From a virus (lineage: Duplodnaviria; Caudoviricetes): DNA of 64,000 nt. A program made the translations under genes and the position numbers. How positions within the stretch are numbered: position 1 is the first letter of the stretch; each line of letters begins with the position of its first letter. The DNA is taken from positions 10,142 to 74,141 of IMG/VR virus record IMGVR_UViG_3300025936_000020. One strand, 5' to 3'. The notes beneath the pieces are model-generated. The model saw nothing but the letters and a program-made list of their open reading frames with translations, searched no databases and was not told the origin of the DNA. Positions 15,455-34,378 of the stretch are shown here, piece by piece.

Positions 15455-15696
15455 AAGCCACGTTCGTTCGCTACTCAATGTGCATCTGCGGGTATCCGGT
15501 TCTCAGCGATTCGGTGCCGATTGGCACCGTGTTCACAGTGGATCCGGACAACACGGCGCCGATGACTGTAATCTGCGGAGGGTGCGGCAAGCACAATCCG
15601 GTGACGGGAGTATGGGTCCACGAAAGGAACGGAAGGCACGCCGGTTATCTGCCGCTGGAAATCTTTGAGTTGGAGAAGGAGAAAGGAACCGAATGA
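15451..15696 (+). CDS. Small Zn-ribbon-like protein
   Basis: CICG and CGGCG motifs; ATGA-coupled. Confidence 0.6.
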   Translation: MKATFVRYSMCICGYPVLSDSVPIGTVFTVDPDNTAPMTVICGGCGKHNPVTGVWVHERNGRHAGYLPLEIFELEKEKGTE

Positions 15697-15998
15697 TCCG
15701 CCGAACCGAATGCCTCAAATGTTTCAAAGTCCCGCGGTTCACCGAGCCTGACGTGTCGGCCGGCTGGACCTACCGGGTCACGACGGCCAAGGTGAAGAAG
15801 CCGGAGAAACACGAGACGAAGATCACTACCACGGACGACGACGGCAAGACCAGCACCGAGACGATCGTGCACGCGTCCATCCTGTGCGACCAGTGCGGCG
15901 AGCCGATCAAGGACGGCAGCCAAGCGAAGCTGGTCACGATGTGGAACAGGAACAGGGAAGGCGAACCGGGAAGGTGGGAGGAGGAGTTTACGATATGA
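15693..15998 (+). CDS. Zn-finger-like hypothetical protein
   Basis: CLKC and CDQCG; SD GAAAGGA. Confidence 0.65.
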   Translation: MIRRTECLKCFKVPRFTEPDVSAGWTYRVTTAKVKKPEKHETKITTTDDDGKTSTETIVHASILCDQCGEPIKDGSQAKLVTMWNRNREGEPGRWEEEFTI

Positions 15999-16270
15999 GC
16001 ACCACTGATGAGGCGGAGCTGTTGGTCTCTGCGCGTCTAGCGATGGCCCAAGTGATCAACACCGATCCAAAGGAGCGACCGGACTTGGAGAAGGAACACG
16101 GCCAGGTATGGGATACCGATGAGCTGGGCCGGGACTTCAAGGTGGAAGGATTCGCCATGCCGCTGGTCGTTGTCAGGCGCAAGTCCGACAACGCGCTGGG
16201 CTCCCTCTTCTTTCAGAGTCAACCTCGCTATTACTTCTGGTGGGAAGCGCATGAACCTGAGAAGAATTAG
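15995..16270 (+). CDS. Conserved hypothetical protein
   Basis: GQVWDTDELGRDF.V.GFAMP.VVVRRKSD...GSL.FQ..PRYYF motif. Confidence 0.75.
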   Translation: MSTTDEAELLVSARLAMAQVINTDPKERPDLEKEHGQVWDTDELGRDFKVEGFAMPLVVVRRKSDNALGSLFFQSQPRYYFWWEAHEPEKN

Positions 16271-16306
16271 TATCCATCAGTTAAACACCAAAGAGAAAGG
16301 AACGGT

Positions 16307-16480
16307 ATGCCAGCAGAAACAAAGACGGTGCGGTTCACGAAGAAGAAGGAGACACCGGGATGCAAGGTGTTTCAGGAGCAGGAGGTGGACGGCCAGCCGA
16401 TCGTCATCGGCACGCTCTACGTGAAGAATTGGTTCGCGGGCGCGGCCACCTCGGTCACGGTCACGATCAGCAAGGAGTAG
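16307..16480 (+). CDS. 57-aa hypothetical protein
   Basis: SD AGAAAGGA; MPAETKTVRFTKKKETPG...IGTLYVK. Confidence 0.65.
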   Translation: MPAETKTVRFTKKKETPGCKVFQEQEVDGQPIVIGTLYVKNWFAGAATSVTVTISKE

Positions 16481-28851: not shown

Positions 28852-29022
28852 ATGAGCAAACAAGTTGAGCGAACCACCGTGGTAAGAATGTCGAAGTCAC
28901 TCCACGAGCGCATCAAAGCCCTGGCCGCAAGTCGCGGGATGAAGCTCCATGCGCTCGCCGATACAATGGCCAGAGTCTGGCTGTCGCTTCCCGAACATAA
29001 AGCGTTTCCGAAGAACAAGTGA
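28852..29022 (+). CDS. Ribbon-helix-helix DNA-binding protein (56 aa)
   Basis: Manual translation MSKQVERTTVVRMSKSLHERIKALAASRGMKLHALADTMARVWL... Confidence 0.7.
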   Translation: MSKQVERTTVVRMSKSLHERIKALAASRGMKLHALADTMARVWLSLPEHKAFPKNK

Positions 29023-29567
29023 GACAGCCTGGATTGTTTCAATGCGAGATCTGGAGGCCCGTTCCAGGGTTCGAAGGATATTATGAAATTTCCTGTCACG
29101 GCAGGATACGGTCGTTTGTTCCGCCAAATGGCAAAGGGCAGTGCCGACAGCCTAAGATTCTTGGTCCCGGCAAGCCGCGCTGTTACAGGAACTTTGTGTT
29201 TCGACGGCCAGGTGCCAGATGGAGGATTGGAGTGCATATCCTCGTTGCCAGATTGTTCATCGGTGTTCCGATGGGGTGCGGCCAGGATGCGGAGCCAAAC
29301 CACCTTGACGGAGATAAGTCCAATAATCATGCGGACAACTTGGAGTGGACAAACAGATCCGGAAATATTCAGCACGCCTACGACATGGGCCTTTCGAAAA
29401 GCGGCGAACAACATCCCTACGCCAAATTAACTGAGGAGGAGGTCAGGCAAATCCGGTCGCTAAGAATGCAGGGCATCAGTCAGTCTCAACTGGCGTCCAG
29501 GTTCGGCGTCTCTCAGAGTCGAATCAGTTTCATCGAGCACAGAAAATCATGGAGAAAAGTATTATGA
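29019..29567 (+). CDS. NUMOD4-HNH homing endonuclease
   Basis: EIWRPVPGFEGYYEIS..GRIRS; HILVARLF...NHLDGDKSNNHADNLEW; HTH. Confidence 0.9.
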   Translation: MRQPGLFQCEIWRPVPGFEGYYEISCHGRIRSFVPPNGKGQCRQPKILGPGKPRCYRNFVFRRPGARWRIGVHILVARLFIGVPMGCGQDAEPNHLDGDKSNNHADNLEWTNRSGNIQHAYDMGLSKSGEQHPYAKLTEEEVRQIRSLRMQGISQSQLASRFGVSQSRISFIEHRKSWRKVL

Positions 29568-30793
29568 ACGACTCAAACAACCCATTCGCCATTGCCGCCC
29601 TTCAGAGCGGCAGCGTATCAATCGCCCAAAGCCGCGCTGCTCAGGAAGTGCAGGCAGCAATGGTCATCGCCAAGAAGTTCCCCCGAAACGAAGAAGAGTG
29701 CATCGAGCGCATCCGCCGTTCGTGCAGTCGGCATTCTTTGGCAGAGGTCGCCACGTATGCTTACCCGCGCGGCGGGGCAACCGTCACCGGAGCCAGCATC
29801 CGACTGGCTGAATGCCTCGCGCAGAACTGGCAGAATATCGACTTCGGAATTGTCGAACTTGAGCAGCGCGATGGAGAGTCCACCGTGATGGCTTTCGCCC
29901 ACGACTTGGAAACAAATTCAAGGCAGACCAAGATCTTTCAGGTCCGACACGAACGCCGAGTTGGGCGCGGCGATGACTTCCGAATCGACAAGCTGACGGA
30001 CCCTCGGGACATTTACGAATTGGTAGCGAATCAAGGTGCTCGCCGCCTGCGGGCCTGCATCCTCGGAATCATCCCTGGCGACGTGACAGACATAGCTTTG
30101 GATCAATGCGAGAAGGCACTGGCCAGCGGCAACAAAGAACCTTTGATTGATCGCGTCAGAAAGATGGCTGCTGCCTTCGGCGAGTTCGGTGTGGTGGTGG
30201 CAATGTTGGAACAGCGGCTCGGTCATAAACTGGAAGCAACCATCGAGCAGGAACTTGTCGGACTCCGCAAAATCTTCGTCAGCCTAAAGGATGGAATGAG
30301 CAAGCGCGAAGACTGGTTCGACGTTAACGCCGTCCCGATCACTCGCCCCAAGTTCGACCGCGACGAGAAAGAGGAATCCGCCGCCGGACTGGCACCAGCG
30401 CAACCCCAATCTCCGCCAGCCGAACAACCGAGGCGCGGGCGAAAGAAAGCGGCAGAGGCCCAAAGCAACGAGTCCCAGGCCGCAGCGCCCGCGCCTGTTC
30501 AGCAGGCGGCTGCTCCAGTAACACCAACGCCCGCCCAAGCGCCGGTTCCTGCACCTACTCCAGCTCCAGCCGCATCCCTGTTCCAAAGCCCGGCCTACAC
30601 CCAGCTAAGGACCTGCATGACATCGAGCGGCGTCACGGATGCCGAACTGATCCAGCTCTGCCGGCATCGCGGCGTGATGACACCGCAGCAGGAGGAACTG
30701 ATGCAGCTCTCCGATGCCACACTGACTGATCTCACGAACAACTGGACTATTATCGCCGGGCAAGTTCGGCAGGATCGGAGAAGGACGCAATGA
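29564..30793 (+). CDS. Phage recombination (single-strand annealing-like) protein with Pro/Ala/Gln tail
   Basis: EVQAAM.IAKKFPR...YAYPRGG...GASIRLAE...ARRLRACIL..IP; next to a PD-(D/E)xK nuclease. Function inferred. Confidence 0.6.
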   Translation: MNDSNNPFAIAALQSGSVSIAQSRAAQEVQAAMVIAKKFPRNEEECIERIRRSCSRHSLAEVATYAYPRGGATVTGASIRLAECLAQNWQNIDFGIVELEQRDGESTVMAFAHDLETNSRQTKIFQVRHERRVGRGDDFRIDKLTDPRDIYELVANQGARRLRACILGIIPGDVTDIALDQCEKALASGNKEPLIDRVRKMAAAFGEFGVVVAMLEQRLGHKLEATIEQELVGLRKIFVSLKDGMSKREDWFDVNAVPITRPKFDRDEKEESAAGLAPAQPQSPPAEQPRRGRKKAAEAQSNESQAAAPAPVQQAAAPVTPTPAQAPVPAPTPAPAASLFQSPAYTQLRTCMTSSGVTDAELIQLCRHRGVMTPQQEELMQLSDATLTDLTNNWTIIAGQVRQDRRRTQ

Positions 30794-30963: not shown

Positions 30964-31145
30964 ACGAAACACCACCCGAAGTACAGAACGCGGTCCTGAT
31001 AGCTGGGGAATTAGCGGGACTGAGTTTCAAGTTAAACGCCGATGCACTCGAAAAGTGGCTCGACACGAAGCCCGAAGGATTCAATTACGAATCGTGGTGC
31101 CGTGCGGCCATTGCCTTCAAGCGGGCAGTCCATACCATCCTATGA
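30960..31145 (+). CDS. Small hypothetical protein
   Basis: Coupled chain. Confidence 0.55.
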   Translation: MNETPPEVQNAVLIAGELAGLSFKLNADALEKWLDTKPEGFNYESWCRAAIAFKRAVHTIL

Positions 31146-31390
31146 ACCCCGCCCTGTTCCGCCCATCGTCCATGCTCCGAAGATCGAAGTGTCCGGGGTC
31201 GATGGCTCTTGAATCAACGATCACGCAGATCGACGACGAAGACGAGTACCAAGCGGAAGGGAACTTATTGCATGCCCTGACAGCGGACCCGTTACAATCC
31301 AGGGCCGGGCTGGAACCCGCCCAGCTTGATCTTGTCGAGACCGTGGAGAAGGCGGAAGCTGAGTTTATCGAGAAGATCCTGAAACTTTGA
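31142..31390 (+). CDS. N-terminal fragment of a Cas4/AddB-like (DUF2800-like) nuclease
   Basis: FRPSS...CPGS...EG..LH: typical N-terminus of phage PD-(D/E)xK exonucleases; stops after 82 aa. Confidence 0.7.
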   Translation: MNPALFRPSSMLRRSKCPGSMALESTITQIDDEDEYQAEGNLLHALTADPLQSRAGLEPAQLDLVETVEKAEAEFIEKILKL

Positions 31391-31480
31391 CGCGAGGCGT
31401 CTGCTGGGCAGAAAGGGTTGGCGGTGGAGAAGTAGCCCTTCTCTCGCGCACCTGTCCACCAGCCTGAAAGGTGAAAGGCG
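31391..31480 (+). ncRNA. Structured element directly after the nuclease N-fragment stop
   Basis: CGCGAG/CTCGCG outer helix, AGAAAGGGTT/AGCCCTTCT hairpin, loop GGTGGA complementary to downstream TCCACC, GAAA tetraloop. Confidence 0.45.
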
Positions 31481-31503
31481 CACGAGAAACCGTCATAAAA
31501 TCT

Positions 31504-31773
31504 ATGCACAAAGAACAACTGCTGGCCGCAGTGAATCTCGAACAAGAGGAACTGCCAAAAGACTGGGAGCTTCCAGTACACTGGGATATGACCTGCCTGA
31601 TAGCAGTCATCGGAACGCTTCAACTCGCCATGCGCCATCCCCAGTTCAAGAAGCGGCCCACGCATGCGATGATCCGGCAGGTCATCGATCAACTCATCGG
31701 CGGTATTCCGGAAAACATGCCAGCCACGCGCGAGCTGGCCCGGCTGGGAGACAATCCGAAGTACGATCTCTGA
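31504..31773 (+). CDS. Small phage protein inside the split nuclease
   Basis: ...IAVIGTLQLAMRHP...; 89 aa from ATG 31504. Confidence 0.65.
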   Translation: MHKEQLLAAVNLEQEELPKDWELPVHWDMTCLIAVIGTLQLAMRHPQFKKRPTHAMIRQVIDQLIGGIPENMPATRELARLGDNPKYDL

Positions 31774-31775
31774 CC

Positions 31776-32627
31776 GTGCTGGACTACTTGGAAATCACCG
31801 AGCAGGAGTTCTCGCTGAAGCGTGGCGACAAGACCATTCTCAAGGGAACCCCGGACTCGGTGCGGGTGTATCACAGCCGGAACCGGGTGGCCGTCTTCGA
31901 GCGGAAGTTTGGATTCAAGGAGGTCCAGCCCGCCGATGCAAACTTGCAGCTGCGCACATACTTGGTGATGGTAGCCAGAACTTATCCAGCCGCCAATTAC
32001 TATGGGTGCCTTACCCAGCCTAGAATCTCCTCCAAACCGCAGATCGTTCAGTACACCGAGGCTGAAATCTTCCAAGCCGAGGATGAGATCTTCCGGATTC
32101 ACGACGCCTGCTACGGTGAAGATCCGCCGCGCCATGCGTCCAACGAAGCGTGCGAACACTGTAGCGCCAAGGCCCTGTGCCCTGAGTTCGCCCAGTGGAC
32201 ATCGGCGGTGGTGAAGGCTCAGCATCTTCCGGTAGGACAATGGACCGACGCTCAGATGGAGACTTTCCTTTTGCGCCAAGGCATCCTGGTAAAGTTCATC
32301 AAGGATACTCTCGATCAGATCAAGCTCATCAAGCAGGCTAATCCAGAACGACTCCCCGGCTGGTCGTTCAAACCTGGGAACGAAGTCCGCACGGTGACGG
32401 ACCTTGTTAAAGCCTGGAGCGCCCTCCAATCTCACATGAGCGCCCTGGAGTTCAGCGGTGAGTGCGACGTGAGCATCGGCGGTCTAGAGAAGGTGATCTG
32501 GCAGAAGCGCCAGGACGACCCATCGCTGGGCAAGCTGACGCAGAAGGGCGTGAAGGCGCTGGTGAACGATTTGTTGAAGGATGTGTTGGTCAAAAAAAAG
32601 AATCGGCCAAGTCTGGAGAAGGAATGA
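31776..32627 (+). CDS. C-terminal fragment of the Cas4/AddB-like nuclease
   Basis: GTPD...FERKFG (PD-ExK), QLRTY, CEHCSAKALC (CxxCx5C). Confidence 0.75.
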   Translation: MLDYLEITEQEFSLKRGDKTILKGTPDSVRVYHSRNRVAVFERKFGFKEVQPADANLQLRTYLVMVARTYPAANYYGCLTQPRISSKPQIVQYTEAEIFQAEDEIFRIHDACYGEDPPRHASNEACEHCSAKALCPEFAQWTSAVVKAQHLPVGQWTDAQMETFLLRQGILVKFIKDTLDQIKLIKQANPERLPGWSFKPGNEVRTVTDLVKAWSALQSHMSALEFSGECDVSIGGLEKVIWQKRQDDPSLGKLTQKGVKALVNDLLKDVLVKKKNRPSLEKE

Positions 32628-33207: not shown

Positions 33208-33404
33208 GCACTAAATCTGTGAGGTTTGAATTGGAAGGGCAACACGTTCACGGCTCACAGTGGTCGGTTATCGAGATTCACACGACAGAAGGCGCAGCTC
33301 GAAAAGGTGAACGAGAGTATAGGAAGTTCAACTCCGCGCAAAAAGTCAAAGGGTGGCGTGGCTTTCGAGTGATGCAGGTAACAACAGTTCGGAAAGTATT
33401 ATGA
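33204..33404 (+). CDS. Small hypothetical protein
   Basis: ATGA-coupled at both ends. Confidence 0.55.
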   Translation: MSTKSVRFELEGQHVHGSQWSVIEIHTTEGAARKGEREYRKFNSAQKVKGWRGFRVMQVTTVRKVL

Positions 33405-34378
33405 GCGAAGAACAACCCATCTCCCCACTGGGACCGAACAAGGCCCCGACCGTCGCCAACTGGGTGGAGCAATACAAGGAACTGAACAAACATCGCTGGT
33501 CGTGGGGCCATCTTCAGATCGTCGATCTGGAGATGCGACGACTGGCGCTGTTCTTCGGCCCCAGGGAGTTCACGCCGCAGGTGCTCGCCGAGTTTTGGGC
33601 GGAGACCCATGCCAGGAAAGCGAAGCCGTGGACGATCCATAAGACGCTCAGGGAGGTCAGGACTTTCGTTCTGTGGCTCGACGCAATGGAGTTCGTGGAT
33701 TACAAGAGATTCGCGAGCATCATCCGCGTGCCGCCCCCGCCTAAAGTAGCTGCGAAGATCTTCACTGAGACCCAGTACGAGAGACTGAAGGCGGCGGCCA
33801 AGGGGACGTATTGGTACTACGCGGTGATCATGGCCTACAGGACCGGAGCGAGGTACTCGGACGTCGCGCTGCTGAAGTGGGAGAACGTGCATCTGGACGA
33901 ATGCTACGTGCGCTATCTCCCGTTCAAAACCCGGAAGACGGGAAAGGAAGCCGTGTGCCCGTTCGATGTGGGCGGGGATCTGCACCAGGTCCTTCAGGAG
34001 ATGAGCCTGTGCAAAGGCGCGAACCTGAATGGATGGGGGGCCTACGTCTGCCCGGACATGGCCATGACCTATCCGGTCAACGGCGGAGCCTGCGGTGCCG
34101 GACCGCAGAAACGGCTTGCGTTCAAAACGCTTTGCGAGAAGAACGGATGCGCCGGCCTTTCATTCCACAAACTCAGAAACTCCTTCATGTCCCGGCTGGT
34201 CGGCAGCGGTGCGTCATATCCGCAAGCCACTCAGATCACCGGGTTGGCCACTACAGCGGTGTTCAACGCGTACGCCAAGCCGGACGTCGAAGCGCTCAGG
34301 AAGGTGGTGGAGAAGGCGGACAAAAAGGATGATCCGCCCACCGAGGGAACGATCATCAAACTACCGGGGGCTGCATGA
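33401..34378 (+). CDS. Tyrosine recombinase/integrase
   Basis: YRTGARYSDV (R), PFKT (K), FHKLRNSF (HxxR), C-terminal FNAY (Y). Confidence 0.85.
   Translation: MSEEQPISPLGPNKAPTVANWVEQYKELNKHRWSWGHLQIVDLEMRRLALFFGPREFTPQVLAEFWAETHARKAKPWTIHKTLREVRTFVLWLDAMEFVDYKRFASIIRVPPPPKVAAKIFTETQYERLKAAAKGTYWYYAVIMAYRTGARYSDVALLKWENVHLDECYVRYLPFKTRKTGKEAVCPFDVGGDLHQVLQEMSLCKGANLNGWGAYVCPDMAMTYPVNGGACGAGPQKRLAFKTLCEKNGCAGLSFHKLRNSFMSRLVGSGASYPQATQITGLATTAVFNAYAKPDVEALRKVVEKADKKDDPPTEGTIIKLPGAA

Follow-up and report, generated by a model that had tools for sequence, protein, structure and literature searches.

Phage genes are known to be interrupted by other DNA in several ways. In the genes-in-pieces of T4-like phages inserted DNA breaks up an enzyme gene, uninterrupted in relatives, into two cistrons, as in nrdA/mobE of Aeh1, genes 39/60 of T4 with mobA, and 43A/43B of phages 25 and 44RR (PMC2988022). 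The polypeptides of such split genes are made separately and, where tested, reassemble into an active enzyme, the cistrons are often coupled via overlapping stop and start codons, and the segment intervening in gene 43 varies with the phage, being either an untranslated spacer or a seg gene (PMC2988022). In fractured genes split inteins flank a homing endonuclease gene (PMC2677866), and group I introns such as those in T4 td, nrdB and nrdD place an insert bearing an open reading frame (ORF) in a gene of DNA metabolism. The locus described here was found in a 64,000-nt stretch of viral DNA (the window), which lies within a 74-kb IMG/VR viral record estimated to be ~95% complete. Two ORFs of its + strand, the N half (31142..31390, 82 aa) and the C half (31776..32627, 283 aa), together resemble a single nuclease, and the comparisons reported below make it highly probable that they specify a phage DUF2800/Cas4-like PD-(D/E)XK nuclease naturally encoded as two cistrons.

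As in the T4-like cases, the enzyme gene is contiguous in relatives and the two cistrons are separated by inserted DNA. Unlike those cases, the enzyme is DUF2800/Cas4-like and the cut parts one cluster cysteine from three, no homing endonuclease was found in 14 variants of the spacer, the cargo consists of small ORFs, transfer RNA (tRNA) genes and a structured RNA, and the split spans a broad clade of uncultured soil phages, in some of which the gap is empty. With fractured genes the locus shares the interruption by an ORF at one site and the presumed separate translation of the halves, but the halves carry no extra intein residues and the gap has no endonuclease gene. Split inteins were considered and rejected, the halves summing to the unsplit length within one residue with no extra domains. 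Group I introns likewise bring an ORF-bearing insert, and the window has the matching U and G at the borders of the gap; however, the insert has no P3-P9 core, and its content varies or is absent while the gene stays split. The RecB-family nucleases Cas4, AddB and AdnAB, with their 'iron staple' cluster, have in common with the window nuclease the D, ExK, QxxxY core and the arrangement of one N-terminal cysteine plus CxxCx5C, whereas the latter has an extra ~130-aa helical C-terminal domain and its ligands lie on two polypeptides. No description of a split DUF2800 or Cas4-like nuclease was found in the literature searched, which is not proof of absence.

The coordinates and motifs of both fragments are as an earlier note on this DNA, made from the sequence without database searches, had given them. 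The nuclease ORFs lie in an operon of the + strand with densely packed cistrons and frequent ATGA overlaps, and the ATG of the N half itself overlaps in this way the stop codon of a 61-aa ORF upstream. The N half carries the motifs RPSS, CPGS and EG..LH and ends in a TGA at 31388-31390; its C17, situated in CPGS on a helical arm, corresponds to the first iron-sulfur (Fe-S) ligand. The C half starts with GTG and contains the PD-(D/E)XK core (GTPD, ERK for ExK, QLRTY for QxxxY) and CxxCx5C, and also bears a C-terminal helical domain beyond the core and the cluster cysteines. The N half, an 89-aa ORF situated in the gap and the C half occupy three different frames.

Both fragments matched Pfam DUF2800 (PF10926), the N half with 21.3 bits (cut-off 21) over profile positions 2-52 and the C half with 43.4 bits over positions 106-340. 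In phrog_69 ('exonuclease') they covered positions 85-151 and 192-457, respectively, and the C half additionally matched Cas_Cas4 and PDDEXK_1. Placed end to end, the two fragments cover the whole length of unsplit homologues (351-376 aa). The earlier note had proposed to fix the junction by alignment with uninterrupted homologues, and in such an alignment the junction agreed within one residue (...KILKL + (M)LDYLE in the window, ...KVLPS-GLDYLE in the unsplit P0020). Since the two ORFs match complementary stretches of the same family profiles and tile the unsplit homologues, 31142-31390 and 31776-32627 are, judged from their sequences, two halves of one enzyme far beyond chance, as the note had supposed.

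The wider nuclease family (2709 matches at E<=1e-3) is overwhelmingly unsplit, with lengths of 345-400 aa. Among 117 aligned unsplit members four cysteines never varied, a single one lying in the N part and the other three in the C part, which bears out the cysteine pattern described in the note; D108, K125 and Q139 were also invariant. The cluster cysteines correspond to C17 on the N half and C126, C129 and C135 on the C half. In Cas4 and AddB an iron-sulfur cluster is held by one N-terminal and three C-terminal cysteines. By analogy with this established arrangement, a cluster in the split enzyme would need ligands from both chains. The window nuclease is not a CRISPR-associated Cas4, as it scored 32.6 bits against the cut-off of 65 of the CRISPR Cas4 equivalog TIGR00372 and no cas genes adjoin it. 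Every member of the Cas4 family bears a four-cysteine Fe-S module (PMC5704561).

The AlphaFold model of the unsplit homologue P0030, which is not the window protein, was confident, with a predicted local distance difference test score (pLDDT) of 94.9. In this model a helix spans residues 59-79, a loop residues 80-85 and the first core strand residues 86-89, and the split maps to the loop. According to the model the split thus sits in a surface loop between an N-terminal helical arm and the nuclease core. In Foldseek searches the P0030 model matched the nuclease domains of AdnA/AdnB, RecE, Cas4 (4ic1, 8d3l) and Exo5 with E values from 5e-7 to 1e-3, and also lambda exonuclease, in keeping with a RecB-like nuclease fold.

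Scanning of viral contigs with a single protein gave no matches and an alignment was required as the query. With the C half as query 45 homologues were obtained, 7-9 of them full length; approximately 35 of the 45 (50-89% identity) were only 282-292 aa long and started at the same residue as the C half. About 40 related contigs were gathered and both nuclease halves were located in each. At least 13 related phage contigs share the split at the same site, and all split loci having upstream sequence carry an N-half ORF there, which gives 14 distinct architectures with the window included. The N halves of these loci end in ...EKIL(KL)* and the C halves begin with M(M)(L)DYLEITEQ or a near variant. 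The N half of the window is 63-93% identical to those of the 13 other split loci, C17, G40 and H44 being invariant.

What varies is the spacer. Counted from the stop codon of the N half to the start codon of the C half, it is 385 nt long in the window, -1 nt in L007 and 3 nt in L026-28 (three independent contigs). In the other loci it measures 156 nt (L030-32), 175 nt (L003/20/21), 193 nt (L002), 358 nt (L019), 462 nt (L023), 488 nt (L025), 526 nt (L035), 701 nt (L039), 869 nt (L041), 898 nt (L036-38) and 1214 nt (L022/29). In several loci the spacer is coding throughout, each ORF having its stop codon overlapped by the next start.

The two insert-free lineages show how the halves adjoin. In L007 the stop codon of the N half and the start codon of the C half share bases (TGATG), the halves being in different frames, and in L026-28 the N half ends in TGA, followed by ACA and then ATG, all in one frame. 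For the latter an alternative genetic code was considered and judged unlikely, the neighbouring genes being intact under table 11. In the relatives generally the ATG of the C half overlaps or abuts the stop codon of whichever ORF precedes it (ATGA, TGATG, TAATG). The window has TGA-cc-GTG at this place: the GTG of the C half lies 2 nt past the stop codon of the 89-aa passenger ORF and is aligned with the ATG of the relatives. This stop/start pattern is, on the level of sequence, the signature of translationally coupled cistrons and not of removable DNA. The median pairwise ratio of nonsynonymous to synonymous substitution rates (dN/dS) was 0.17 and 0.19 for the N and C halves, respectively, and such low values indicate that both halves are under purifying selection. 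Neither a sigma-70 promoter nor an intrinsic terminator was found on the + strand of the insert.

Of the three options offered by the earlier note, an intron-like element, DNA excision and a natural two-chain nuclease, the conserved split, the insert-free relatives, the coupling and the purifying selection favor the last. The 82-aa N chain would be a helical arm supplying the first of the four invariant cysteines, and the 283-aa C chain would provide the catalytic core with the remaining three. The two chains would be made by separate translation, the C chain probably being initiated through termination-reinitiation at TGAccGTG, so that neither splicing nor excision would be needed. We infer that the chains associate into one enzyme without a covalent link, the cluster acting as a staple between them, and that this enzyme would be an active nuclease. 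Once the gene had been split, the break would act as an ordinary gene boundary within a highly mosaic early operon, at which small accessory genes, tRNA genes and a structured RNA of ~118 nt would be gained and lost.

Four observations weigh against this interpretation. The C half of the window has GTG as its start codon and lacks an obvious Shine-Dalgarno sequence, which makes its expression level uncertain. Its frame is stop-free across the insert and the N half ends in CUU UGA C, a combination that leaves a small opening for recoding. A Cas4 has been reported to retain endonuclease activity without the cluster (PMC8610317). Finally, the distant gene P0104 (locus L046) resembles the C half, yet the 900 nt upstream of it contain no N half, which means that in some lineages the core may work alone. 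P0104 (L046:899-1771) is 31% identical, has the same structural start and is immediately preceded by a Phage_int_SAM_4-like fragment; the contig is short, and the gene may be an independent truncation or a split form with a remote partner. P0163, also on a short contig, was considered, like P0104, as an independent split in a distant family member.

The P0104 gene is also what speaks for the gene being functionally broken, so that the C half works alone, or neither half works, and the N ORF is a remnant or has been repurposed. We consider this quite unlikely, because the N half adjoins the C half in all 14 split architectures with 63-93% identity, its cysteine and EG..LH motif are invariant, and its dN/dS is as low as that of the C half; a remnant would not survive in lineages so far diverged that their C halves share only 50% identity.

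The earlier note had drawn attention to the fact that removal of 31388-31772 joins the two frames, with a U preceding the junction and a G ending the insert, and had considered a compact intron-like element, i.e. a self-splicing RNA of 385 nt that is excised from the messenger RNA to restore one ORF; if it occurred, splicing would produce a junction peptide of the KLTVLDYLEITEQ type. In favor of such an element one could add the conserved structured RNA (see below) formed by the first ~118 nt. The in-frame removal is real, but any deletion that begins at a stop codon and ends just before the following start will bring back a frame, and by this construction it is uninformative about an intron. 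The U before the junction is the synonymous third base of a Leu codon and is not conserved: L003, L002 and L030 have CTA in place of CTT, and thus an A before the stop. The TGAC that the note had seen at both junctions amounts to two TGA stop codons each followed by a C and is not common to the relatives. No intron or ribozyme family of Rfam was matched in the window region (E<=5) or in seven related loci (E<=1), in line with the statement of the note that a group I core is lacking; at these permissive thresholds the sole match was a tRNA in L041. As a whole the insert folds no better than shuffled sequences (z = -0.48). The relatives are the most telling: their inserts range from 156 to 1214 nt, have unrelated contents and in several cases are wholly coding with overlapping stop and start codons, two lineages without any insert are split nonetheless, in one case with the halves in different frames, and the structured RNA occurs also outside the nuclease gene (L045) and away from the junction (L025, L041). 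An intron is thus extremely improbable, and a false lead, that of a new compact intron at this place, can be removed.

It can also be asked whether the two halves are joined at the level of translation. The heptamer at the end of the N half, CUU UGA C (31385-31391), is the same as in the +1 frameshift site of prfB, the frame of the C half is the N-half frame +1 and is stop-free from 31383 to 32627, which arises in only 1.4% of shuffles, and the structured RNA begins at the stop codon. A +1 frameshift here would fuse the N half, a linker of 128 codons and the C half in one polypeptide. However, the C frame is open in none of the 11 insert-bearing relatives, in which the ends of the N halves also vary (CUU UGA U/G, CUA UGA), and a Shine-Dalgarno-like stimulator 3 nt upstream, present in prfB, is missing. 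The +2 phase of the passenger ORF contains 0-1 stops in every homologue, including one outside a nuclease gene, so that the open frame is mostly an effect of composition. The linker would be an unconserved Arg-rich peptide placed into a loop, and the insert-free relatives would need -1 frameshifting (L007) or readthrough (L026), so there is no common recoding rule. Taken together, a frameshift fusion appears highly improbable. Translational bypass of the T4 gene 60 type was likewise rejected: the gap is 385 nt long, a stop codon follows the candidate landing site and there is no shared take-off/landing pair.

DNA excision, the remaining option of the note, found no support either, since there are no flanking repeats longer than 4 nt and the insert is single-copy in the 74-kb record. 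The same two observations, together with the lack of att-like sites, count against a related proposal, according to which the gap is a dedicated site for insertion driven by a homing endonuclease or a recombinase and the insert is a mobile DNA cassette. This proposal draws on the distribution of the split. When a tree was made from the C-half region, with distant unsplit members as the root, the split forms were interspersed among the unsplit ones, with at least 5 changes of state, and a topology in which the split forms were forced into one clade was rejected (delta log-likelihood 181, p of the approximately unbiased test 5e-53), with the reservation that the group was defined after inspection of the tree and that recombination lies outside the model. 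Cargo turnover is rapid among relatives 71-89% identical, genes for an HNH endonuclease (29019-29567) and a tyrosine recombinase (33353-34378) are close by, and in several loci the cargo has the structured RNA at its 5' end. On the other side, no endonuclease or recombinase gene was detected by family matches in any of the sampled spacers of the 14 architectures, and small ORFs are equally variable at other boundaries of the operon. Between an empty split gene and an unsplit one there is a single point mutation (L026 type) or, in the L007 type, a 1-nt indel; recombination can also move the state of the junction between lineages. Because such changes take a single step and phages recombine freely, repeated changes of state need no special mechanism. 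A dedicated insertion site is therefore very unlikely in our view.

The wider gene order agrees with a two-cistron nuclease whose gap is an ordinary boundary. In a crude synteny map the conserved backbone consists of a phrog_3657 protein, the N half, the C half, a helix-turn-helix (HTH) protein and a tyrosine recombinase. As small ORFs vary at every boundary of this backbone, the gap within the nuclease behaves as one more boundary.

The small ORFs of the spacers fall into several families. Family A (89 aa) was found in the window, L019, L022, L039 and L060, family B (85-86 aa) in L022, L025, L041 and L037, family C (~105 aa) in L022 and L039, and a family of 67-68 aa in L022 and L037. Singletons are a membrane 'moron' (phrog_18620) in L003 and a phrog_11227 protein in L035. 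Two of the nuclease gaps contain a tRNA gene, L041 at 658-739 (Rfam tRNA, 39 bits) and L023 at 1464-1550 (87-nt tRNA-Trp, ARAGORN). A segment of L019 (1373-1461) resembles a degenerate 3' half of a tRNA and was called by neither tool.

The passenger of the window, the family A gene at 31504..31773 (+ strand), has 15 homologues with 55-88% identity. The protein had no match in Pfam or PHROG and no fold match in the PDB; its AlphaFold model is all-alpha with a pLDDT of 90.5. Some homologues lie outside nuclease genes, where they follow DUF7694, CxxCxxCC or NTP-transferase genes. By these sequence comparisons family A is an independent small phage gene and not part of the nuclease, in agreement with the earlier note, which had called the 89-aa gene unrelated.

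Between the N half and this passenger gene lies R1, an RNA-like element of ~118 nt (31386..31503, + strand) that extends from the stop codon of the N half to just before the ATG of the 89-aa ORF. A model of R1 matched L039, L022/L029, L025, L041, L045 and L060 with 111-137 bits, so that with the window there are seven independent copies, one per phage; the identity is 80-86% in L039, L022/29, L025 and L041. In L045 it follows the phrog_3657 gene, at a distance of 2.6 kb from a permuted nuclease gene. The fold predicted by RNAalifold is a three-way junction with inner helices that are invariant, and therefore neutral on structure, and two variable distal hairpins, which differ in length and sequence yet remain paired. 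Under this structure 94% of the cells are paired, and seven pairs are changed on both sides, compared to 2.5+-1.2 in shuffles (0/500) and 0-5 in slid controls; the test comprised only seven sequences, and the structure had been derived from six of them. The L060 copy, which was outside the model building, gave a further compensatory change. These data make R1 a candidate for a conserved structured RNA.

Near the 3' end of R1 in the window a CCGTCA motif stands 10 nt upstream of the ATG of the 89-aa ORF. Six of the seven copies have a CCGTC(A/G) motif at the 3' end with an ATG 5-13 nt beyond it, and in the L022 copy the ATG is 27 nt after the motif, with a Shine-Dalgarno-like AAAGGAAAG. The ORFs downstream of R1 differ between loci. 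No Rfam family matched R1 in the window region or in the seven related loci. A 20-mer scan of 185,579 prokaryote genomes yielded one chance match (Bhargavaea) and no match to the model, and a scan of viral contigs for the 3' motif gave one chance match, inside a minus-strand ORF. R1 may be a leader or a processing element for the cargo. A more elaborate picture, in which the gap is a cargo bay fed by R1-headed mobile cassettes, R1 represents a new RNA class (a processing site, a ribozyme or a Shine-Dalgarno-independent leader) and the split Fe-S ligands gate assembly of the nuclease on both cistrons, is in our opinion unlikely. What can be put on record is a small conserved RNA, predicted to be structured and with no Rfam family, at the head of a variable cargo of small genes.

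The split has a practical side: gene callers and pangenome pipelines will list a truncated 283-aa protein and an orphan 82-aa ORF across this clade of soil phages. It would also mean that there is a natural nuclease of the Cas4/AddB type with its iron-sulfur ligands divided over two polypeptides, and thus a ready system for asking whether an "iron staple" holds two chains together and how independent the N-terminal arm is. On the second question naturally permuted relatives are informative. In a sister lineage (P0043, P0044, P0046 and P0048; loci L008 and L040; record G002, 15527-16396) the nuclease is a single ORF of 370-385 aa in which the first ~65 residues of the C half (GTPD...ExK...QxxxY) come first, followed by the equivalent of the N half (FRPSS..CPGS..) and then by the remainder. 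One breakpoint of the permutation coincides exactly with the split site, and the N-terminal arm thus acts like a module that can be moved; the permuted relatives likewise point to the arm as an independent module.

Several neighbours of the nuclease deserve mention. The gene at 29549-30793 encodes a conserved 414-aa phrog_3657 protein, the C-terminal third of which is Ala/Pro-rich and of low complexity; it had no match in Pfam or NCBIfam. In most of the related loci that extend far enough, the gene precedes the nuclease, and its product may be a recombination partner of the nuclease. At 29019-29567, overlapping the start of the phrog_3657 gene, there is a free-standing gene resembling HNH homing endonucleases (NUMOD4 + HNH_3 + HTH, phrog_59), and L002 has a GIY-YIG/NUMOD gene at the equivalent place. 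The tyrosine recombinase (33353-34378), which has weak matches of the XerC/XerD/XerA type, is located ~1 kb downstream of the nuclease and is conserved in split and unsplit relatives alike.

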